A DNA stretch of 47,712 nucleotides from Armatimonadota bacterium (lineage in GTDB: Bacteria; Armatimonadota; Hebobacteria; CAIYQO01): positions 1 through 47,712 of the forward strand of contig JBBRXO010000009.1 of the NCBI GenBank assembly GCA_038248345.1. Direction: 5' to 3'. A program made the position numbers and the translations under genes. Shown here one piece after another: positions 11,052-42,411 of this stretch (positions are counted from its first letter, which is position 1; every line of letters begins with the position of its first letter). The notes under the pieces were generated by a model. That model saw only the letters and a program-made list of their open reading frames with translations. It ran no database searches and was not told where the DNA came from.

Positions 11052-12539
11052 ATGAGTAAGAAATTGAAGATATTATATGCATCGGCAGAGGTAGTACCTT
11101 TCGCCAAGACCGGCGGGCTGGCAGATGTCGCGGGCGCGTTGCCTGCGGAACTAGCGGGAATGGGACACGATGTGCGTGTGGTCATGCCGCGCTTCAGTTC
11201 AATAGATGGCGATAAATTCAAGTTAAAGACCATTACCGCGCCATTCAAAATCCCCTTGGGGAATGAATTAATTGATATCACGGTAGCGGAGAGTGACGCA
11301 ATCGCAGGCGTATCTACCTACTTTATCGAAAACGACGCACTTTTTGATCGGGATAGCCTGTATGGCCAGCCGGACGATGACCGTCGCTTTATTGCCTATT
11401 GTCGTGGTATGTTGGAGATGTTTGAACAGATCGGCTGGTTCCCGGATGTTATCAGTTGCAATGACTGGCATTCCGCGCTGACGCCCGTGTACTTGAAGAC
11501 GATATATGCTAATCAGGAGAAGTTTCGCCGCATCGCTACACTGTACACCGTACATAATCTCGCCTACCAGGGAACATTTAGCGAAAATGTAATGCAACTC
11601 GCTGGGTTACCGGCAGAGCTCTTTACCTGGGACAAATTGGCGTACTATAACACCTTTAATTTCATGAAGGTCGGTTTGCTCTATGCCGATGTCATCAGCA
11701 CAGTAAGTGAAGGATACGCGGAAGAGATTGCCACCAAAGAGTACGGGGCCGGGCTGGAAGGCGTAATCGAGTATCGCAAGCATGATCTCTTTGGCATCCT
11801 GAACGGAATTGATTATGATATCTGGAACCCGCGTACTGACAAACTAATTCCAGCGAATTTCAGCGTGAATGACTTGAAGGGTAAAGCAGAATGTAAACGG
11901 GAGCTGCAGCAGGAGATGGGGCTGGCAGTGGATGCCAATACGCCAGTGTTTGGTCTGATCAGCCGCCTTAGCTCGCAGAAGGGTTTGGATATCCTCGCGG
12001 AAGTGTTGCCAGAATTGCTGAAAATGCAGGATATGCAAGTAGTGATACTTGGCACTGGCGATGAATATTTCCACACTATGCTGAAGAAACTGGCGGCACT
12101 TCACCCGGATAAGCTGGCGTTGGCGCTCCGTTTCGATAACGCGCTCGCGCATCGTATCTACGCCGCCTCCGATGCCTTTCTCATGCCCTCGCAATACGAG
12201 CCGTGTGGCCTCGGACAGATGTTCAGCCTGGCTTATGGCACTGTACCGGTGGTACGTGCCACCGGTGGCCTCGCGGACACCGTGCATAACTTCGATTTAC
12301 ATGACCCGGCCAGCAAAGGCAACGGCTTTGTTTTTGAGCAATATAGCAGTTTCGAATTACGCAAGACCATCCTTGCTTGCCTTAACTGCTATCATGAAGC
12401 ACCTGGCAGTTGGGCGCAGCTAGTCAAAAACGCCTTCGCTGGCGACTTCTCCTGGCACAATTCTGCAGCACGATATCTGGAAGTCTACCAGCATGCGTTG
12501 CTAAAGGTACGGGGTAGGGCAGGGTCATTCGACGAATAA
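11052..12539 (+). CDS. glgA: Glycogen synthase
   Basis: PFAKTGGLADV, HNLAYQG, GILNGID, MPSQYEPCGLGQ. ATG 11052 after GGAG. Confidence 0.96.
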   Translation: MSKKLKILYASAEVVPFAKTGGLADVAGALPAELAGMGHDVRVVMPRFSSIDGDKFKLKTITAPFKIPLGNELIDITVAESDAIAGVSTYFIENDALFDRDSLYGQPDDDRRFIAYCRGMLEMFEQIGWFPDVISCNDWHSALTPVYLKTIYANQEKFRRIATLYTVHNLAYQGTFSENVMQLAGLPAELFTWDKLAYYNTFNFMKVGLLYADVISTVSEGYAEEIATKEYGAGLEGVIEYRKHDLFGILNGIDYDIWNPRTDKLIPANFSVNDLKGKAECKRELQQEMGLAVDANTPVFGLISRLSSQKGLDILAEVLPELLKMQDMQVVILGTGDEYFHTMLKKLAALHPDKLALALRFDNALAHRIYAASDAFLMPSQYEPCGLGQMFSLAYGTVPVVRATGGLADTVHNFDLHDPASKGNGFVFEQYSSFELRKTILACLNCYHEAPGSWAQLVKNAFAGDFSWHNSAARYLEVYQHALLKVRGRAGSFDE

Positions 12540-12586
12540 CAAAGCCACAGACTATCTCTGTGAAGACTCGGACATATAGTTAGCTT

Positions 12587-12619
12587 ATTGCCCAGTCGTT
12601 TACGGCTGGGTAATTTGTT
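12587..12619 (+). terminator. Putative intrinsic terminator after glgA
   Basis: Hairpin ATTGCCCAGTCG-TTTA-CGGCTGGGTAAT followed by TTGTT. Confidence 0.55.
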
Positions 12620-12662
12620 ATCAGAGTCTGATGAAGCGGGAATGACAATCGTCATACCGCAC

Positions 12663-12692
12663 TTGACATATCCGCTACCTATCTGGTAGTAT
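12663..12692 (+). promoter_or_regulatory. Putative sigma70 promoter of the pyr operon
   Basis: TTGACA (12663), 18 nt, then TG-extended TAGTAT (12687). Confidence 0.6.
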
Positions 12693-12708
12693 CTTCCCTA
12701 ACGCATCA

Positions 12709-14459
<1,751 letters not shown>

Positions 14460-14463
<4 letters not shown>

Positions 14464-15671
14464 CAATATTGATTAAAAACGTCTCCAGCAATGGCGAAAT
14501 TAAGGATATTTCCTTCGGAGGGCCTGCGCTCTCCGATGAGAGCAAGTATGACCAGGTGATCGACGGCACCGGCCTGCTGGCCGTGCCCGCCTTCGTCGAC
14601 GTCCACGTACACTTCCGTGATCCCGGCCAGACGGAGAAGGAAGACCTGCTCACCGGCGCACGCGCGGCGGTGGACGGTGGCTACGGGCGGGTGATCTGCG
14701 AGGCCAATACCTCCCCGGTGATCGACAACTTGGAAAAGGTGCAGGCATTCTACGCACGTGTGAAGGAGCTGCAACTGCCTATAACCGTAGATACCAAGTG
14801 CGCCCTGACAATCGGGCAGCAGGGAGAGCAACTGGTAGATATTGCCGGACTGAAAGAGAGCTATCCGAGCATTATCTTCAGCAGCGACGGCGAGCCGGTG
14901 ACGGATCGCGAGTTGTTGATTAAGGCCTTCCGTGCAGCAGGAAATAACGAGATACACCTTCATTGTGAGGAGACACCCCGTTCGCATGAGCGCGTAGTCG
15001 CCGTCCTGGGCGAGGGGGCATACCTTTCTCGCGAGGTGGAGTTGATCAAACTGGCGCTATCAGCATTAACGGAAGCAGGGGTCGGCAGTCTGCATATCCA
15101 GCATGTAAGCCTCGCCGAGAGCGTTGCGATTATCGCAGAAGCAAAAGAGCGCGGGCTGAATGTTACCGCCGAGGTGACACCGCATCATATGTTACTTTGT
15201 GATGAGGATATCCCCGTAGGGGATACCAACTGGAAGATGAACCCGCCACTACGCAGTCGGAAAGATATGATGGCAGTTCGCAAGGCACTAGCTGATGACA
15301 TAATCGATGTAATTGCCACCGACCACGCCCCGCACACAATTGCAGACAAATCAAAATCGTGGGACGAAGCGCCATTTGGTGTTATCGGATTGGAGACGGC
15401 ATTCGGGGCTTGCATGAAGCTGGTACGTTCGGGCGAATTGTCTTTCGGAAGATTGATAGTGGCGATGACGGATGGTGAGCAATCGCTTGAATATGGGGTC
15501 ACATTAATAGATCCCAATGAAAAATGGACGGTAGATTCAGCTAAATTCGAGTCAAAATCCAGTAATTGTCCCTTCGCTGGGATGGCGTTAATCGGTAAAG
15601 TGAAGAGGATAGTTCCTAGTTCCTGGTTCCTAGTTTCTGGTTCAATGTTCAATGTTCAATGTTCAATGTAA
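14460..15671 (+). CDS. pyrC: Dihydroorotase
   Basis: DVHVHFRDPG, EVTPHH, KMNPPLRS, IATDHAPH. ATG overlaps the pyrB stop (ATGA) after GGAGG. The last ~17 codons are encoded by heptamer repeats. Confidence 0.93.
15611..15668 (+). repeat. Left arm of cassette 1: 7-nt tandem repeats, (AGTTCCT)-type then (GTTCAAT)x4
   Basis: agttcct agttcct ggttcct agtttct g gttcaat gttcaat gttcaat gttcaat g, read directly. Confidence 0.95.
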
Positions 15672-15702
15672 TACGCAGATTTTGCGAATTATGGAGTTTA
15701 GA

Positions 15703-16089
15703 ATGGCTGATAAATTTGAAGAGCTTGTTGCTTGGCAGAAAGCACGTGAACTATGCAACGCGGTTTATTGCCTGACGTTAGAAGGTGCTTTTAATAGAGA
15801 TTTTGCATTGCGAGATCAGATTAGAAGAGCGGCTATCTCCATTATGTCTAACATTGCTGAGGGTTTTGAACGAGGTGGTAACAGGGAATTATGTCAATTT
15901 TTGTATATAGCCAAGGGATCTGCAGGAGAAGTCAGAGCGCAATTGTACATTGCACACGATGTCGGTTATATCACCGATGAACAATTTGAGAGACTGAATG
16001 ATATGACGATTAAGAACAGCCAGCTAATTGCAGGATTCATACGCTACATTGAAAAGAGCGACATGAAAGGTTCAAAATACAAGGAATAG
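15703..16089 (+). CDS. Four helix bundle protein (23S rRNA IVP / bAvd-like family)
   Basis: MADKFEELVAWQKAREL...DQIRRAAISIMSNIAEGFER...AKGSAGEVRAQL. ATG 15703 after GGAG. Confidence 0.92.
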   Translation: MADKFEELVAWQKARELCNAVYCLTLEGAFNRDFALRDQIRRAAISIMSNIAEGFERGGNRELCQFLYIAKGSAGEVRAQLYIAHDVGYITDEQFERLNDMTIKNSQLIAGFIRYIEKSDMKGSKYKE

Positions 16090-16135
16090 TAATGTGAAAA
16101 CAGTGGGTGAATGACTTCGCAAAAGCATTGCTACT

Positions 16136-16178
16136 CGTTGAACATTGAACGTTGAACATTGAATCATAGATAGGAACT
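16136..16178 (+). repeat. Right arm of cassette 1: inverted (TTGAACR) repeats plus TAGGAACT
   Basis: cgttgaacattgaacgttgaacattgaatcatagataggaact is the near reverse complement of 15625-15668. Confidence 0.95.
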
Positions 16179-16183
16179 TTATT

Positions 16184-17305
16184 ATGGCTAAATTAGTTTT
16201 GAGTGATGGTACCGAGTTTTCCGGCGTCTCCATTGGCGCTCCGGTTACGCATATTGGCGAGGTAGTTTTCAATACTTCGATGACCGGGTATCAGGAGATG
16301 CTCACTGACCCCAGTTATCGCGGGCAGATATTGACGCTCACCTATCCGCTCATCGGCAATTATGGCATTACCGATGAGGACTGGGAGTCGAGCGAGGTGC
16401 AGGTGCGCGGGCTGGTGGTGAAGCAGCTTTGTGCCCGGCACAGCAACTGGCGCGCCACGGCGGCGCTGGATGACTTCCTGCGTGAGAAGGGGATACCGGG
16501 CATCGCTGGGGTGGACACACGTATGTTGACGCGTGCGATTCGCTCGCACGGCGTGATGATGGGCGTGATCACCGGCGAGGACAAGACGGCGGCGGAATTG
16601 CAGCAACTGCTCACCGATGCGCCGGATTACGGCCTCACCGACTACGTGAAGGAAGTATCCGCCGGGCGCATTTACCCGTGGCAGGAGCAGGTACAGGAAC
16701 CTTACGATGAGCTGGCACGCTTCGTCGCACCGGAGCAGCTGAATATCACCGTGGTTGATTATGGGGTAAAGCGCAACATTCTGCGCCTTCTCGCAACCCG
16801 TGGCTGTACCGTGCGCGTGGTTCCTTGCGATGCACCGGCTTCTGTTATCCTGGAGGGCAACCCCGATGGCATCGTCTTCTCGCCTGGCCCCGGTGACCCG
16901 GCGATGTTGGGCTACGCTATCAAAGTGATGCAGCAGGTGGTCGCCACAGGGATTCCCATATTGGGCATCTGCCTAGGCCACCAGCTGATGGCACCTGCCT
17001 TCGGTGGTAAGACCTTCAAGCTGAAATTCGGCCACCGCGGCAGCAATCACCCGGTGAAGGATCTGGTACGTAACGGTGCCATCCACATCACCGCGCAGAA
17101 TCACGGCTACGCGGTAGACGCCGACAGCATCGCCGGCAGCGGCCTGAAGGTCAGCCATATCAACCTGAACGACGGCACGGTAGAAGGAATGGTACATGAG
17201 ACCCTGCCGATTATGACCATGCAGTTTCACCCGGAAGCCAGCGGCGGGCCACGGGATACGGAGTATATGTTTGATGAATTTGTCAGGATAGTCGCTAGTC
17301 GCTAG
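16184..17305 (+). CDS. carA: Carbamoyl-phosphate synthase small subunit
   Basis: GEVVFNTSMTGYQE, SPGPGDP, GICLGHQ, QNHGYAVD, QFHPEA. Confidence 0.97.
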   Translation: MAKLVLSDGTEFSGVSIGAPVTHIGEVVFNTSMTGYQEMLTDPSYRGQILTLTYPLIGNYGITDEDWESSEVQVRGLVVKQLCARHSNWRATAALDDFLREKGIPGIAGVDTRMLTRAIRSHGVMMGVITGEDKTAAELQQLLTDAPDYGLTDYVKEVSAGRIYPWQEQVQEPYDELARFVAPEQLNITVVDYGVKRNILRLLATRGCTVRVVPCDAPASVILEGNPDGIVFSPGPGDPAMLGYAIKVMQQVVATGIPILGICLGHQLMAPAFGGKTFKLKFGHRGSNHPVKDLVRNGAIHITAQNHGYAVDADSIAGSGLKVSHINLNDGTVEGMVHETLPIMTMQFHPEASGGPRDTEYMFDEFVRIVASR

Positions 17306-17320
17306 TCTCTAGTCCTGATT
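17290..17320 (+). repeat. Left arm of cassette 2: (AGTCGCT)-type 7-nt tandem repeats containing the carA stop
   Basis: agtcgct agtcgct agtctct agtcctgatt. Confidence 0.95.
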
Positions 17321-17352
17321 GAATGGTTACAATTCGGAGATAGAAGGAAACG

Positions 17353-17730
17353 ATGGCAACTATTTCTCGGTTTGAGGATATTGAAGCTTGGAAGTAAGCG
17401 CGGGAGCTGACGCGCGAGGTGTATCAATTAACAGCTTGTGGTGAATTTGCGCGTGATTACGGTTTACGCGAACAGGTGCGTCGTGCAGCGGTATCGGTGA
17501 TGTCGAATATTGCTGAAGGTTTTGAACGTGGGAGTGATAGGCAATTACGTCATTTTCTCCTTATCGCCAAGGGTTCGGTCGGAGAGGTGAAGTGCCAACT
17601 CTATATCGCGCATGACGTTGGATATATATCAGAAGAGCAGTTCAGCATATTGATGAACAAAACAACTGAGATCGGGAGAATGCTCGCTGGTTTCATGCGC
17701 TATTTAGAACAAAACGATAAAAAAGGATAG
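17353..17730 (+). pseudogene. Four helix bundle protein gene with premature stop
   Basis: ATG 17353 (after AGAAGGA) reads MATISRFEDIEAWK*ARELTREVY, with in-frame TAA at 17395-17397. The remainder (RRAAVSVMSNIAEGFERG) is clearly homologous to 15703..16089. Confidence 0.85.
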
Positions 17731-17749
17731 TCTCAAGTCAGTCTGTCAA

Positions 17750-17780
17750 AATCATGACTAGCGACTAGCGACTAGTGACT
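17750..17780 (+). repeat. Right arm of cassette 2: (GACTAGC)-type repeats, inverted relative to 17290-17320
   Basis: aatcatgactagcgactagcgactagtgact; 28 of 31 positions are Watson-Crick complementary to the left arm, plus one G-U. Confidence 0.95.
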
Positions 17781-17798
17781 TATTAGGAGATACTATAT

Positions 17799-19484
17799 AT
17801 GCCTCTAAGAACAGACTTACATAAGGTAATGGTCATCGGCTCCGGCCCCATTGTTATCGGGCAGGCTGCCGAGTTCGACTATGCGGGGACGCAGGCTTGC
17901 CGGGCGTTGCGCGAGGAGGGGTTGTCGGTGGTGCTGGTGAACAGCAACCCGGCGACTATCATGACCGACGCGAATATGGCGGACAAGGTCTATATTGAAC
18001 CGCTGACGGTGGAATTCCTCACGAAGATCATCGAGAAGGAGCGTCCGGACGGGCTACTGCCCACACTCGGTGGGCAGACGGGGCTGAACCTGGCGACGAA
18101 GCTGGCGAAGAAGGGTGTGCTGGATGATTACGGTGTGGAGCTACTTGGTACCCCGCTGTCATCTATCGAGAAAGCGGAGGATCGCGAGCTGTTTAAGAAC
18201 CTGATGAAGGAGCTGAACGAGCCGGTGCCCGAGTCCGCCATCGCCGAGAGTATGCAGCACGTGAAGGATTTCGTCGCTCATCTCATAGAAGTGGAGAAAG
18301 AGACGGGTCTGCCGGTATTCCCCATCATCGTGCGCCCGGCGTACACCCTGGGCGGCACCGGCGGTGGCATCGCCTATACCATGGAAGAACTTCACGATAT
18401 CAGTGTGCGCGGTTTCCGCATGTCCATGACGCAGCAGTTACTGCTGGAGCGCTGCCTGCTGGGCTGGAAAGAAGTCGAGTATGAAGTGATGCGCGATGGC
18501 GATGACAACTGTATTACCATCTGTAATATGGAGAACTTCGATCCGATGGGCATCCATACCGGCGACTCCATCGTTATCGCCCCCAGCCAGACGCTCTCCG
18601 ACAAAGAGTACCAGATGTTGCGCTCCGCCTCGGTAAAGATCATCCGCGCACTGGGTATCTGGGGTGGATGTAATGTGCAGTTGTCGCTCGATCCGAAGAC
18701 CTTCCGCTATTACGTCATCGAGGTAAATCCCCGCGTGAGCCGTTCTTCGGCGCTGGCATCGAAAGCTACCGGCTACCCGATTGCCCGCGTGGCGGCGAAG
18801 ATCGCCGTCGGCCTGCGATTGGATGAAATACAGAATGCGGTGACCAAGCGCACACTCGCCTGCTTCGAGCCGGCGCTGGACTATGTGGTGCTGAAGATCC
18901 CGCGCTGGCCCTTCGATAAGTTCAACTTTGCTGACCGGCGCATCACCACGCAGATGAAAGCCACGGGTGAGGTGATGGCTATCGACCGCACCTTTGAAGG
19001 CGCGCTGATGAAGGCAGTCCGTTCACTGGAGATCGGCCAATATGGCCTGACGCTGAAGGGCATCTGCGACTGGACCGACATGCAGCTGGAGGAAGTGATA
19101 AAACATGCCACCGACCAGCGCCTCTTCGCCATCTGCGAGGGCTTCCGGCGCGGTATGGACGTGGAGGAGATACACCAGCTCTCCAATGTGGACGTATGGT
19201 TCCTGGAGAAGGTGAAGGGCCTCGTTGATCTGGAGACCGAGTTCCGCGCCCACAAAGGCCTGCCCGACGAGACGCTGTTGCGCCGTGCAAAAGTGGCCAG
19301 CTTCAACGATCACAACCTGGCCGATATGTGGGGTGTGAAGGAGACAGAGATCCGCGCCCTGCGCAAAGAATGGGGCATCCAGCCAGTCTTTAAATTCGTC
19401 GACACCTGCGCCGCAGAGTTTGAATCAGAGACGCCGTATTACTACTCGACATATGAGACGGAGAATGAGCTAATGATGGCGTAA
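17799..19484 (+). CDS. carB: Carbamoyl-phosphate synthase large subunit, N-terminal half
   Basis: [42 protein letters not shown]; ends at [24 protein letters not shown]. Confidence 0.95.
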
Positions 19485-19534
19485 TCTTTCTATCGGGCGT
19501 TGTCTGCGAGAAAGGGAATAATGTGATATGTATA

Positions 19535-19673
19535 CCCCGGACGTTGCCCGAGGTTATGATATTTATCCGTTTGAGAGGTAGTGAAGCTATTAGCCCGGTT
19601 ATTTTTTGTACGGGCTAATAGGGATAGAGGCAATATGCTAGAATAATAACATAGCCTCGGGCAACGCCCGGGG
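19535..19673. repeat. REPIN-like palindromic element, copy 1
   Basis: Outer inverted repeat CCCCGGACGTTGCCCGAGGTTATG / CATAGCCTCGGGCAACGCCCGGGG; inner hairpin TATTAGCCCG...CGGGCTAATA. Confidence 0.85.
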
Positions 19674-19751
19674 ATATGGTTTATAGTGATATGTCTATCC
19701 CAGGCGGTGCCCGGTGATAGGAGTTAACGCTACAATATAAGGGGTATAGAG

Positions 19752-20198
19752 ATGCATTCATTTACTCGTATTCTGATACATGCTATTTTTAGTACTAAAT
19801 ACCGAAATCCTTTGATATTGGATGATTTTAGGGAAGAGATGCATCGGTATATGGGTGGAATATTGCGTAATCTGGGTTGTACTCCAATATTGATTAATTC
19901 TGTACCTGATCATGTCCATTTGTTGTTCATACTTTCAAATATGCAGACGATCGCTTTTGTTATGGAAGAGACGAAGAGAGCATCGTCTAAATGGATAACA
20001 ACCCGATTCTCAAAACCGGATTTTCGCTGGCAGAGCGGATATTGTGCATTATCTGTAGACAGCACTGGACTGGATAAAGTGCAGGGGTACATCGCAAGGC
20101 AGCGTGAACATCATGAAGAAATTTCATTCGCAGATGAGCTTGAAGAAATTTTCCGACGTAATAAGATTGAATTCAACAAGCATGATACGTTAGATTAG
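19752..20198 (+). mobile_element. IS200/IS605-superfamily Y1 (HUH) transposase, probably REP-associated (RAYT-like)
   Basis: HAIFSTKYR, DHVHLL (HUH), WQSGY, YIARQREHH (catalytic Tyr). AT-richer than carB and flanked by palindromic repeats. Confidence 0.88.
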
Positions 20199-20204
20199 TC
20201 GGCT

Positions 20205-20349
20205 GTTCCCCCGGGTATTGCCCAGACTATGATATATACCTGTTTGAATGGTATTGAATTCTATTAGCCCGTAATTCTGTTTACGACCTAATATGGGCAG
20301 AGGCAATATTAGTGCATAATATCCTAGCCTCGGGCAACGCCCGGGGAAC
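20205..20349. repeat. REPIN-like palindromic element, copy 2 (diverged direct repeat of copy 1)
   Basis: GTTCCCCCGGGTATTGCCC...CTATTAGCCCG...AGAGGCAATAT...TAGCCTCGGGCAACGCCCGGGGAAC aligns along the length of copy 1. Confidence 0.85.
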
Positions 20350-20413
20350 GGGTTTCGATTCCGGGCAGCGCCGGTGGTAATGATTTTAGAGGCGAAAAGA
20401 GGGAGAATAAAAA

Positions 20414-20716
20414 ATGTTCATCCACAGTGTATACTTTTGGCTAAAAGAAAACCTGTCTGAGGCAGAGCGCGCGGACTTTGTGCGCGGGGCGCAGTCGTTA
20501 CTCGGCGTGGACACTATTGTGCGCGGGCATATCGGGGTACCGGCAGCGACGCGGCGGGCAGTGATCGACAGCAGTTATGACTTCGCGCTGGTCTTCGAGT
20601 TTGCTGACCAGGCGGGGCAGGATACCTATCAGGAGCATCCGATTCATTTACAGTTTGTGGCGGATTGCGCGGTTTATTGGACGCGGGTGCAGGTTTATGA
20701 TTCGGTAGCACTGTAG
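20414..20716 (+). CDS. Dabb family (stress-responsive A/B barrel) protein
   Basis: MFIHSVYFWLK...YDFAL...YQEHPIH pattern; strong SD GGGAG. Confidence 0.85.
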   Translation: MFIHSVYFWLKENLSEAERADFVRGAQSLLGVDTIVRGHIGVPAATRRAVIDSSYDFALVFEFADQAGQDTYQEHPIHLQFVADCAVYWTRVQVYDSVAL

Positions 20717-20748
20717 TTTTTGCATATGAAGTAAGTAGAGGAAGAACC

Positions 20749-22317
20749 ATGTCAACAAAGAAACGTGTCGTTGTATTAGGCTCCGGACCCATTCGTATCG
20801 GTCAGGGGATAGAATTTGATTACTGCTCGGTGCACAGCGTCTGGGCGCTGCGCGAGGAGGGGTATGACGCCGTCATTATCAATAACAATCCGGAGACGGT
20901 ATCAACAGACTTCGACACCTCCGACGCGCTCTTCTTTGAGCCGCTGACGGAAGAGGATGTGATGAATATCCTCGACCAGATTCACCCGGAGGGGGTAGTG
21001 GTGCAGTTCGGCGGGCAGACGGCCATCAACCTGGCTGGGCCGTTGCATGAGGCTGGTGTGAAGCTACTGGGTACCTCCTTCCATGGAATAGAAATGGCGG
21101 AGGACCGGGAGCTGTTCGACGATCTGCTCACCAAGCTGGATATCGTTCGTCCGAAGGGGAAGTGCGTGGTCTCGTTTGAAGAGGCATTGATTGCGGCGCG
21201 GGATATCGGGTTTCCGGTACTCATACGCCCCAGTTTCGTCCTCGGCGGTCGCGCGATGGAGATCGTCTATGACGAGGTTCATCTGAAGCGCTACATGACC
21301 TATGCGGTAGATGTATCACCGGATCGTCCGATCCTCATTGATCGGTATATTACGGGTAAAGAAGTAGAGGTAGACTGCATCTGTGACGGCACCGACGTGC
21401 TCATCCCCGGTATCATGGAGCATATTGAGGCGGCGGGCGTCCACAGCGGCGACTCTATGTCCGTCTATCCACCGGTGACGCTCTCGCAGCAGGTGAAGGA
21501 CACGGTAGTAGACTACGCTATCCGCCTCTGTCACGGCATCAACGTTATCGGGCTGATGAATATTCAGTTTGTTGTGGATGAAGCTGATATCGTTTACGTC
21601 ATCGAAGTGAATCCGCGCGCCTCGCGCACCGTGCCCTACATGAGTAAGGTCACCGGTGTGCCGATGGTGAACGTGGCTACCAAATGCGCACTGGGCCGCA
21701 CCCTAAAGGAACAGGGGTATTCGCACGGATTATTCCCCGAGCGCCCTTATTACGCGGTGAAAGCTCCCGTGTTCAGCTTTTCCAAACTCACTGACGTGGA
21801 TGTATCACTAGGGCCGGAGATGAAATCCACCGGCGAGATTATGGGCGTGGATGCAAAATATCCGCACGCGCTCTACAAAGCGATGGTGGCCTCGCATATC
21901 GACGTACCGCTGAAGGGTTCGATGATCTGCACCATTGCCGACAAAGATAAAGAGCGCGCCTTGCCGGTAATCCGCAAATTCAGTGACGAAGGATTTAAAA
22001 TCTACGCTACACGTGGTACTGCTTTGCATTTGATAAAGAATGGGGTAGATGCACAGAGCGTAGCGAAGATCAACCAGGGCAGTCCCAATATTATCGACTT
22101 GATTAAAAATGAGAAGATTGACCTGTTGCTCAACACTCTTTCCCCGGACAAAAACAGCGAGCAGGAAGGCGCCAAAATCCGTCGGAGTACCGTCGAGCAC
22201 AATGTCGCCTGTCTGACTTCGTTGGATACTGCTGAAGCTTTGCTGATAGCCATGGAATCCCGTCGCAGCGGTGAAGAGATGACGGTGCGGTCATTGGACG
22301 AGTATTTCAGCGAATGA
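20749..22317 (+). CDS. carB: Carbamoyl-phosphate synthase large subunit, C-terminal half (second ATP-grasp plus MGS domain)
   Basis: LGSGPIRIGQGIEFDYCSVH, EVNPRASRTVP, LGPEMKSTGE, YATRGT; has its own SD (GAGGA). Confidence 0.95.
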   Translation: MSTKKRVVVLGSGPIRIGQGIEFDYCSVHSVWALREEGYDAVIINNNPETVSTDFDTSDALFFEPLTEEDVMNILDQIHPEGVVVQFGGQTAINLAGPLHEAGVKLLGTSFHGIEMAEDRELFDDLLTKLDIVRPKGKCVVSFEEALIAARDIGFPVLIRPSFVLGGRAMEIVYDEVHLKRYMTYAVDVSPDRPILIDRYITGKEVEVDCICDGTDVLIPGIMEHIEAAGVHSGDSMSVYPPVTLSQQVKDTVVDYAIRLCHGINVIGLMNIQFVVDEADIVYVIEVNPRASRTVPYMSKVTGVPMVNVATKCALGRTLKEQGYSHGLFPERPYYAVKAPVFSFSKLTDVDVSLGPEMKSTGEIMGVDAKYPHALYKAMVASHIDVPLKGSMICTIADKDKERALPVIRKFSDEGFKIYATRGTALHLIKNGVDAQSVAKINQGSPNIIDLIKNEKIDLLLNTLSPDKNSEQEGAKIRRSTVEHNVACLTSLDTAEALLIAMESRRSGEEMTVRSLDEYFSE

Positions 22318-22318
22318 T

Positions 22319-22350
22319 AAATATGGGGCGGAGCCTTCCGCCCCATATTT
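22319..22350 (+). terminator. Hairpin terminator ending the pyr/car operon
   Basis: Perfect 14-bp stem AAATATGGGGCGGA-gcct-TCCGCCCCATATTT. Confidence 0.8.
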
Positions 22351-22473
22351 CTACAATATCACCATTCCTCCCCGTACCTGCTTTATTCCGGTGCGAAATA
22401 ATTTTAAAAAAAAATTTTGATATGGCAAAAATCCGGCAGGTGATACCTGGCGCCATAGCAAACTTATACAAAG

Positions 22474-24264
22474 ATGCCGGAGAGTTTATTCTGGCTTAGT
22501 TGCGGTTTTTTTATGGCTCGTTTACGTGTTTTCTGGGGAATAATACGTCCTTTTCGGGGACGATTGTTTTTGGCGGTGCTTTTAACCGTGGTGCTTACGT
22601 CATTATCGGCGTTACCGCCACTGGTGATGCAATACCTCATAGATGATGTTGCTACTAAAAAGAACTGGCACCTGATGGTACCGGCGGTGCTCTTTGTTAC
22701 CCTGCTCCCCATTTGGTCGGCCTGGTTCACCTTCCTCAATCGCGTTTATATCTCTGCCATCGGGCAACGGCTGGTAGTGGATCTACGCACTAACCTTTAT
22801 GAGCATGTTCTGAATCTGAGCATGCGCTTCCACGGGAAAGTCGGGGCCGGGCCTTTGATGAGCCGGCTGATGACTGATGTGGGTATCGTGCAGAATATGG
22901 TTACCGGTGAGACGTTGGCTACCTTGAGTAGTGGCGGTATGCTCATCTTTGGTGTGGCCATGGCTTTCCACATAAATTTCCGCCTGGCCTGGGTGGTGGT
23001 GATTGCAATTGTCCTCTGCGCGCTCAACTATCGTAAATATTCGCGCCTGATACGCACAGCCAACCTGGAATTACGCGAGATGATGGACGAGGTGACCGGC
23101 ACGCTGCAGGAGCGGCTGGCAGGTGTGCGGTTGGTAAAGACCTACTGTCGTGAACGTGACGAAACTAACGCATTTCTCGTTTCTACCGACAAAGCACTGG
23201 AAATCGGCATGCGCTCGCAGATGCTTTCCGTATCATTGAACACCTCCGCACGTCTTATCGTCGGGTTATTATCCACCGTGGTCTGGTGTGGCGCTGTCTG
23301 GTTCATCCTCAAGGGGGAGGATGGCATGACTTACGGGAAATTACAGGCTATTACCGCTTATCTGTGGATGGCGCTGAACCCGGCTATCAACCTGACAATG
23401 GTGGCGGATACATTGGTGCAGGCTACTACTTCGCTGGATCGCATCCTAGATGTTACCAATACCCCACAGGATATTGTGGAGCGGAAAGACGCCTATGAGT
23501 TACCGGCGGTATCAGGGGAATTGAAATTCGAGTCGGTTGATTTTGCCTATGAGCCAAGTAGTCCGCTTTTTCAGCATCTTGATATGACCTTCCCGGCGGG
23601 GAAGATGACGGCGCTGGTGGGCCATACCGGCTGCGGCAAGACTACCGTCACCAGTCTGCTCATGCGCCTGTGGGAGGCGCAGGGTGGGGCGGTTACTCTC
23701 GACGGGCACGACGTGCGCGACATCACCCTGCGCAGCCTGCGCCGTCACATCGGGGTGGTGCCACAGGAGTCAGTGATGTTCGAGGGGAGCATCAGCAGCA
23801 ATATCGCCTACGGGATGCCGGAGGCGACCCAGGAGGAGATCGAGGAAGCGGCGCAGGCGGCGCAGATACATGACTTCATCATGACTCTCCCCGATGGCTA
23901 CGCCAGCTGGCTGGGCAAGGGTGGGGTGCAGATCTCCGTCGGGCAGAAGCAGCGTATCGCCATCGCCCGCGCTATCCTGCTCAAACCGGCGGTGCTGATC
24001 CTGGATGAGGCGACTAGCTCGCTGGATAGCGAGTCGGAAGCGGCCATCCAGTTGGCGATGAAGATCGTCTTGAAAAACCGCACCAGTGTGGTGGTGGCGC
24101 ACCGCTTGAGTACCATCACCGCCGCGGATCAGATAATCGCCATGGATCACGGAGAGATAAAGGAAAAGGGAACTCACGAGGAGCTGATGCAGATTGAAGG
24201 CGGGCTATACCAGCGTCTCTACCATGAGCTACAGGGTAAGCACGAAGGTGAGGTGTCGCTATGA
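22474..24264 (+). CDS. ABC exporter, fused permease/ATPase (subunit 1)
   Basis: TM domain, GHTGCGKT, degenerate signature ISVGQ, ILDEAT. Start may be 22513. Confidence 0.92.
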   Translation: MPESLFWLSCGFFMARLRVFWGIIRPFRGRLFLAVLLTVVLTSLSALPPLVMQYLIDDVATKKNWHLMVPAVLFVTLLPIWSAWFTFLNRVYISAIGQRLVVDLRTNLYEHVLNLSMRFHGKVGAGPLMSRLMTDVGIVQNMVTGETLATLSSGGMLIFGVAMAFHINFRLAWVVVIAIVLCALNYRKYSRLIRTANLELREMMDEVTGTLQERLAGVRLVKTYCRERDETNAFLVSTDKALEIGMRSQMLSVSLNTSARLIVGLLSTVVWCGAVWFILKGEDGMTYGKLQAITAYLWMALNPAINLTMVADTLVQATTSLDRILDVTNTPQDIVERKDAYELPAVSGELKFESVDFAYEPSSPLFQHLDMTFPAGKMTALVGHTGCGKTTVTSLLMRLWEAQGGAVTLDGHDVRDITLRSLRRHIGVVPQESVMFEGSISSNIAYGMPEATQEEIEEAAQAAQIHDFIMTLPDGYASWLGKGGVQISVGQKQRIAIARAILLKPAVLILDEATSSLDSESEAAIQLAMKIVLKNRTSVVVAHRLSTITAADQIIAMDHGEIKEKGTHEELMQIEGGLYQRLYHELQGKHEGEVSL

Positions 24265-26123: not shown

Positions 26124-26171
26124 CTGCTGGGAGCGCACGCTTCCAGTAGGGGCGTGCTCCATATCATACAG

Positions 26172-26203
26172 ACTTACTAACCTACGGACCTACAGACCTA
26201 CCC
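26172..26203 (-). repeat. Degenerate 8-nt tandem repeat overlapping the stop of the TIM-barrel gene
   Basis: Plus strand acttacta acctacgg acctacag acctaccc. Confidence 0.6.
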
Positions 26204-42363: not shown

Positions 42364-42411
42364 ACCTATAGACCTATAGACCTAAAGACCTAAAGACCTA
42401 AAGACCTAAAG
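42364..42411 (-). repeat. Six-unit 8-nt tandem repeat beginning at the proB stop codon
   Basis: Plus strand (ACCTATAG)x2 (ACCTAAAG)x4. Confidence 0.95.

Follow-up and report, generated by a model that had tools for sequence, protein, structure and literature searches.

Two PF05635 four-helix-bundle genes in an Armatimonadota pyr operon lie between inverted heptamer arrays whose unit tracks the protein

The pyr operon of an Armatimonadota bacterium contains two four-helix-bundle genes of the PF05635 family, each set between a tandem heptamer array and its inverted counterpart. Across the family the repeat unit of such arms tracks the protein and not the host, and one protein residue covaries with one base of the unit. 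We consider it reasonably probable that these are selfish cassettes at gene junctions, that the encoded protein reads the cassette's own ends, and that gene-less derivatives are distributed genome-wide.

Two cassettes at successive pyr junctions

Within the window (the whole stretch of DNA that was analysed, 47,712 nt), the cassettes are arranged as listed in Table 1. The initial annotation had placed two homologous four-helix-bundle genes at the pyrC|carA and carA|carB junctions, and the profile scores agree: genes 1 and 2 reach 121.5 and 107.4 bits against PF05635 (cut-off 33.8) and 116.6 and 108.9 bits against TIGR02436 (cut-off 24), with 72 identical residues in common. The bracketing of each gene by a 7-nt array and its reverse complement was recovered as well, with period-7 arrays at 15610-15643 (TAGTTCC x4.9), 15640-15669 (GTTCAAT x4.3), 16138-16163, 17289-17314, and 17756-17780, and with the cassette arms as the two longest inverted repeats within 12000-22000 (lengths 31 nt, with 90% identity, and 29 nt, with 93%). 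The arms had been taken to be unrelated in sequence between the two cassettes, which did not hold: an R-G-T-Y core is common to both, as it is to the arms of different cassettes generally. It occurs about four times in the arms of cassette 2 and eight times in left arm 1.

Table 1. Positions of the cassette features and flanking genes in the window
Feature	Position	Strand	Remarks
pyrC 3' end	15600..15671	+	arm-encoded (VKRIV...CSM-stop) in place of family PVYT...EVLF-stop
Cassette 1 left arm	15610..15669	+	outer AGTTCCT-type and inner TGTTCAA-type units, GTT core throughout; translated as pyrC
Four-helix-bundle gene 1	15703..16089	+	intact, 128 aa; GC 0.41 (neighbours 0.53-0.58)
Gene 1 codon Asn60	15880..15882	+	accompanies GTT arms
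Cassette 1 right arm	16138..16178	+	TTGAACA x3.7, one outer AGGAACT overlapping the purine tract before carA
carA	16184..17305	+	stop codon 17303-17305 within left arm 2
Cassette 2 left arm	17289..17320	+	AGTCGCT-type units, GTC core
Four-helix-bundle gene 2	17353..17730	+	interrupted by TAA at 17395-17397
Gene 2 codon Asp62	17536..17538	+	equivalent of position 60; accompanies GTC arms
Cassette 2 right arm	17750..17780	+	stops just 5' of carB AGGAG

The initial annotation needs a correction for one of the bundle genes: gene 1 is intact, but in gene 2, as read in the assembly, an in-frame TAA forms codon 15. A third full-length family gene, located on another contig, has an early stop too and is flanked by 8-mer arms. 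Two of the three full-length family genes in the genome are broken, and their arrays persist. Genes 1 and 2 are both AT-richer than the neighbouring genes, and promoters and terminators within 15500-17900 do not exceed chance level. The overlap of the left arms with the last codons of the upstream gene applies to both cassettes, with a correction in extent: the pyrC frame reads through the entire left arm 1, which replaces a 19-residue C-terminal tail kept in the nine other family members shown. The right arms had been described as ending at the downstream ribosome-binding site; right arm 2 does so, ending before AGGAG, while right arm 1 includes the AGGA.

A structure model of the gene-2 residues past the stop (pLDDT 94) has a four-helix fold like that of XCC0516, with a TM score of 0.85 to 2GSC. 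The fold is similar to the pentamers 2GSC and 2RLD (five chains each) and more weakly similar to Avd (TM about 0.76), and both Avd profiles score under their cut-offs (PF22296, 23.7 versus 40; NF033474, 22.6 versus 80). Family profiles and fold match uphold the kinship with the 23S rRNA intervening-sequence (IVS) protein and with Avd that had been stated earlier. A search with PADLOC defence profiles returned 0 families at E 0.01. According to the accessible part of bioRxiv 2023.10.23.563531, flipped-out RNA bases sit between the protomers of the Avd pentamer. By analogy with 2GSC, 2RLD, and Avd, the family protein would form a homopentamer with one heptamer bound per subunit.

Repeat units, proteins, and residue 60

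The suggestion that homologues of these genes are likewise enclosed by paired arms was borne out. Among 80 genomic homologues, 78 of them with both flanks, paired arms (pairing score 18) were present at 53/78, compared with 1/68 neighbouring control genes and 58/614 cross pairs, and period 7 prevails in the flanks (55/78 and 56/78). For homologues of the same phylum, 35 of the 51 that were scorable reach a pairing score of 15; in a second set, made up of metagenomic homologues, 41/68 reach a score of 18. Such pairing is above chance: among the 535 small ORFs of the genome, 7 attain a flank-pairing score of 18, namely gene 2, four ORFs with starts resembling Y1 transposases, and two others; gene 1 is absent from them because its ORF call started within the arm. 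Family genes are mostly co-oriented with their neighbours (58/66 upstream, 59/66 downstream), and the left arm begins between -40 and +15 of the upstream stop in 31/46.

The number of cores per arm peaks at five (36/116 and 40/114) and falls to 8 and 9 at six; five is the number expected for a pentamer. Deviation within arms is 2-3% at core bases versus 10-25% at other positions. The protein tree comprised 126 proteins, 4 of 130 having been excluded as broken or duplicate. Unit similarity declines with protein distance, whatever the host (Mantel test on n=98: rho -0.35, with a minimum of -0.15 under the null), and amounts to 0.86 in 27 close cross-phylum pairs, 0.51 in 26 same-genome pairs, and 0.49 at random. 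A special process homogenising the paired arms had been proposed and found no support: arms of the same unit, taken from different cassettes, pair only slightly less well than the two arms of one cassette (43.9 versus 45.2). The match between left and right arms follows from both being arrays of one motif, which varies with the protein sequence.

Among 65 phased cassettes, no residue and base were linked more strongly than residue 60 and the Y of R-G-T-Y, its fourth base: Asp60 goes with C and Asn60 or Thr60 with T. C was found in 9/9 Asp cassettes of this discovery set, and 54 of 56 non-Asp cassettes were without it. The prediction was fixed before a later set of 80 new loci was examined, 55 of which had a phased unit (the remainder largely had no motif match or unit call), and there C accompanied 25/25 Asp and T 30/30 others. 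Five more Asp loci with unphased units contain GTC or GCC. Another prediction made beforehand, that Ser or Thr59 goes with A, failed (0/6). Arg78 tends to accompany an A as the final base of the unit, a weaker association than that of residue 60 (100/118 rows concordant, LR 30). Both pyr cassettes obey both rules, with Asn60, GTT arms, and Arg78 alongside A at the last position in the first, and Asp62, GTC arms, and Lys80 alongside a non-A last position in the second.

A tree of 118 rows, in which residue 60 was masked, has 14 Asp changes, and all of them coincide with base changes. A Pagel-type test gave a likelihood ratio of 91 for residue 60 versus about 11 for two control positions, and is lenient because these control positions themselves gave p about 0.02-0.03. 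Strongly supported branches provide just four independent contrasts, all concordant (4/4, p 0.125). Templating of the arms by codon 60, or pairing with it, was rejected: the Asp codons are GAC 19 times and GAT 15 times, and the complementarity of neighbouring positions is not above shuffles. GC confounding of the code was also rejected (p 0.35). In other subfamilies the code fits partly and phasing is ambiguous, and an extension to them in which Arg or Lys60 goes with G is a partial, post hoc fit. The genome-wide GTC share has a median of 0.60 in 8 Asp genomes versus 0.20 in 38 others (p 0.0014), a count that includes matches that overlap as well as the arms of the cassettes themselves, omits 3 of 49 genomes, and lends weak support.

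The structure model places residue 60 where helix 3 begins. Helix capping favours Asp, Asn, and Thr at helix starts; it accounts for the set of residues found at position 60, but not for their covariation with the arm base. Judged from these sequence correlations, the arms are very probably read sequence-specifically by the family protein.

Occupied and empty junctions, and gene-less arrays

The idea of a mobile unit with presence/absence variation is supported at several junctions. The pyrC|carA junction is visible in 11 family genomes and holds a four-helix gene in three of them (this genome, G004, and G011), a different gene in each and all with GTT-core arms; in G009 the right arm alone remains. 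In the congener G001, whose carA is 97% identical, this junction is empty, and a different family gene (55-59% identical) with other arms follows carA. Among 18 more distant loci, one has a four-helix gene after carA and one a GxxExxY gene. In two Nostoc plasmids the gene occupies consecutive but different junctions of a single operon, and the site that is filled in one plasmid is empty in the other. Between this genome and G001, at syntenic junctions selected from 27 loci, there is frequent swapping of arrays, REP-like hairpins, and small genes, and no clear target duplication was found there. The cassette ends have neither a conserved terminus nor conserved outer bases. TA is present at the outer edges in 37/84 and 18/63, versus 24 and 11 further out, and at one Nostoc site the start codon context is repeated.

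As had been stated, no transposase or reverse transcriptase (RT) lies within the cassettes; the genome has 10 Y1 matches elsewhere, unlinked to heptamer arms, and two RT matches on other contigs, not adjoining cassettes. Near-identical gene copies at different sites were not seen in this genome. The gene matched 30 of 72,556 plasmid records and was not found in 50,697 phage records, nor in viral contigs. All in all, we are quite confident that the cassettes are mobile as a unit.

Arrays had been presented as a feature of the cassettes. They do flank the genes, but they also occur genome-wide, with 92 period-7 arrays that are mostly without the family gene. The 73 arrays defined by pattern include 66 that could be scored, and among these the outer side is nearer to a gene boundary in 55 versus 11; array partners are found on the inner side in 23 cases and on the outer side in 0. 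Controls using a reversed pattern were discarded, since they overlapped real array families. Four gene-less units of ~95 nt have a related spacer (p at most 0.006 for four of the six pairs, the other two not significant), and one of the four is missing from G001. For some array families of this genome, the assembly lacks a cognate gene.

Intergenic heptamer repeats that resemble the cassette arms (period 7, one strand after stops and the other before starts, inverted pairs) are described in the accessible parts of PMC4692102 and PMC4679880. They include GGGAATC in Xanthomonas and GGGGA(C/T)T in Nostoc, for which this polarity and the inverted pairs are published (PMC4692102), and TAACTGA in Beggiatoaceae, for which MacGregor sought a binding protein (PMC4679880). 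Read backwards, TAACTGA would contain AGTT. As far as the main texts of the two papers are accessible, they make no link to the PF05635 family ('XCC0516' and 'four helix' are absent).

Stem, regulator, or element ends

Recognition through RNA structure, as proposed in the initial annotation, finds no support in the arm mismatches, which in the 148 cassettes passing the alignment threshold are 227 of G·U type versus 219 of A·C type; 46 tRNA stems, used as a control, gave 16 versus 0. Given the lack of a G·U excess, the pairing of foreign arms, and the endangered stop codons of the flanking genes, the arms therefore read as inverted binding-site arrays. It is improbable, in our view, that the cassettes are intervening sequences of mRNA, with arms kept for a stem at which RNase III would cut or the gene would be looped out, so that the insertion does no harm. 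Both stems do dominate the predicted RNA folds (z -5.5 and -2.7), the genome has an RNase III gene, and the co-orientation with neighbours fits; moreover, RNase III cuts the Coxiella 23S IVS, which likewise has a gene of this family, heptamers, and a stem of 28 bp (accessible part of PMC4990558), and Correia elements are cut in mRNA (accessible part of PMC10969869). However, the pyrC stop is at the inner end of its stem and the carA stop inside the other, so ribosomes would traverse the arm and a cut in the stems would risk an mRNA without a stop, and the residue-base code would be left unexplained. We read the pairing of arm RNA as a by-product, one of consequence in rRNA; cleavage or looping of mRNA at the stems may occur as a side effect.

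A post-transcriptional regulator would use the same arrays differently, as a ring that binds them single-stranded in mRNA (in the manner of TRAP or Hfq), autoregulates, and controls the array-bearing genes, with mobility incidental. The code and the five-core evidence apply to it equally, and arrays adjoin gene starts and stops; in the accessible texts, MacGregor suggested such a binding protein for the TAACTGA repeats (PMC4679880) and Avd binds RNA (bioRxiv 2023.10.23.563531). We nevertheless judge it unlikely, as congeners show array turnover at their orthologous junctions, the broken genes of this genome have left their arrays in place, and a protein that reads single strands has no need of a second, inverted arm. 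A retro-mobile unit, whose Avd-like protein binds the cassette RNA and recruits an RT in trans, would suit the structural match to Avd and the occurrence of RT in 16/26 gene-bearing genomes versus 4/15 without the gene, and insertion between stop and start could reflect an RNA-linked target. An RT match is absent, however, from 10/26 gene-bearing genomes (assemblies being incomplete), the Avd family scores are far under the cut-off, and the cassettes themselves have no RT, which makes it quite improbable. Slippage repeats at gene borders, hitchhiking with a gene of unrelated function, would agree with the published gene-less heptamer arrays of the same polarity (accessible part of PMC4692102), and linkage by itself can make units track the protein tree. 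This explanation is largely refuted, and very improbable, considering the 14 coincident residue-base changes and their replication in the later set, the position-specific conservation inside arms, and the enrichment of arms over control genes.

As in the 23S IVS, the terminal inverted repeats of the cassettes are able to form a long stem, and the S23p IVS of Coxiella burnetii and Leptospira have the same protein family and tandem heptamers (PMC4990558, in its accessible part, where ORF decay is described as common and no protein role is proposed). In contrast, no rRNA match was found within 12400-22500: the cassettes are flanked by pyrC, carA, and carB rather than located inside a 23S rRNA gene, their arms overlap flanking codons, and they have no RNA-pairing signature. 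Avd of the diversity-generating retroelements (DGRs; PDB 4DWL, 8UB7) is a similar four-helix bundle, whose pentamer reads bases in inter-protomer crevices (accessible text of bioRxiv 2023.10.23.563531); unlike DGRs, the cassettes lack an RT, a template repeat, and a target gene, and their proteins score under the Avd cut-offs. The cassettes have terminal inverted repeats and empty and filled sites, as MITEs and IS elements do. REP/RAYT elements are comparable short, inverted-end elements at gene borders. The Correia and ERIC MITEs are also short, with inverted ends, a location at gene borders, and gene-less derivatives, and RNase III cuts some of them within mRNA (accessible part of PMC10969869). 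In the cassettes, by contrast, the ends are degenerate tandem arrays linked to a non-transposase protein, and a clear target duplication was not found. The element is thus distinct from the 23S IVS in its location, is not a DGR, and is not a proven MITE.

The mechanism that we propose for the selfish cassette is that a promoter-less PF05635 gene, enclosed by a pair of inverted arrays with about five copies each of the protein's recognition motif, would move horizontally as a unit with them. These arrays would serve as element ends that are read symmetrically, likelier as DNA than as an mRNA stem, although for the bound form itself we regard DNA and RNA as about equally probable. Strand transfer would be provided in trans, for which the Y1 HUH transposases and reverse transcriptases of this genome are possible sources; insertion would occur at stop/start junctions, where readthrough transcription would then express the gene.

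More tentatively, and with somewhat more doubt than belief, PF05635 proteins in general may be sequence-specific nucleic-acid-binding rings with a simple residue-base code, defining a class of minimal mobile elements that end in arrays of the protein's own site. Gene-less derivatives would then explain much of the intergenic heptamer repeats, the 23S IVS would be a special case, and GxxExxY nuclease cassettes, with arms of 8-10-mers, a parallel branch. In the literature covered, which excludes most subscription journals, no paper ties the PF05635 family to intergenic heptamer arrays or gives a residue-base code. The heptamer repeats that several papers report without a binding protein or a means of spread would gain a candidate cause. 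If mobility is true, its mechanism fits none of the element classes compared. At adjacent sites in one host, the Asn/GTT cassette beside the Asp/GTC cassette offers a natural paired control. If the proposal is true, a large protein family of unknown function gains a candidate ligand and a one-residue specificity switch.

GxxExxY genes with cassette-like flanks

Genes of the GxxExxY family (PF13366) were found to share the layout of the four-helix-bundle cassettes, their inverted arrays being built of 8-10-mers. The set comprised 20 loci, namely L331 of the window's own genome (G000, contig C72, 12144-12491) together with L332-L350, from which 14 matches were scored. A flank-pairing score of 18 was reached by 8 of these scored matches. 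One GxxExxY gene of genome G016 lies directly 3' of carA.

The carB split and neighboring features of the pyr operon

The carB gene is present as two halves separated by a Dabb-family gene. Six family genomes were retrieved with a region that includes carB, and every one of them shows this arrangement. The split also holds an IS200-like Y1 transposase gene flanked by REP-like inverted repeats; the congener (G001) carries these repeats and lacks the transposase gene. Between carA and carB, a further unannotated gene was observed downstream of carA in four family members (L007, L008, L011, and L012), and it is missing from the genus of the window organism. The short remnant at the stop of gene 2, the four-helix-bundle gene at the carA/carB junction, is similar to the beginnings of both left arms.

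Further features of the window
Feature	Position	Remarks
PyrR-binding leader match, sub-threshold	12706-12818	5' of pyrR; 31.7 bits vs cut-off 54
Left-arm-like remnant, short	17724-17739	begins at gene 2 stop; repeat family D9
carB halves with Dabb-family gene	17799-22317	
Y1 transposase gene with REP-like repeats	19535-20346	
Lone 8-mer array	26167-26201	related to arms of third, broken four-helix gene (contig C1)
Lone 8-mer array	42364-42411	related to arms of third, broken four-helix gene (contig C1)

Gene-less units and a repeat unit common to two phyla

Arm-spacer-arm units containing no gene form one family with related spacers in the window's own genome (G000 C1:103430, C14:19571, C35:22576, and C127:5726). 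Across phyla, the AGGAGTC unit is common to the cyanobacterial loci L316 and L318, which are copies of one subfamily, and to the Armatimonadota copy L035.
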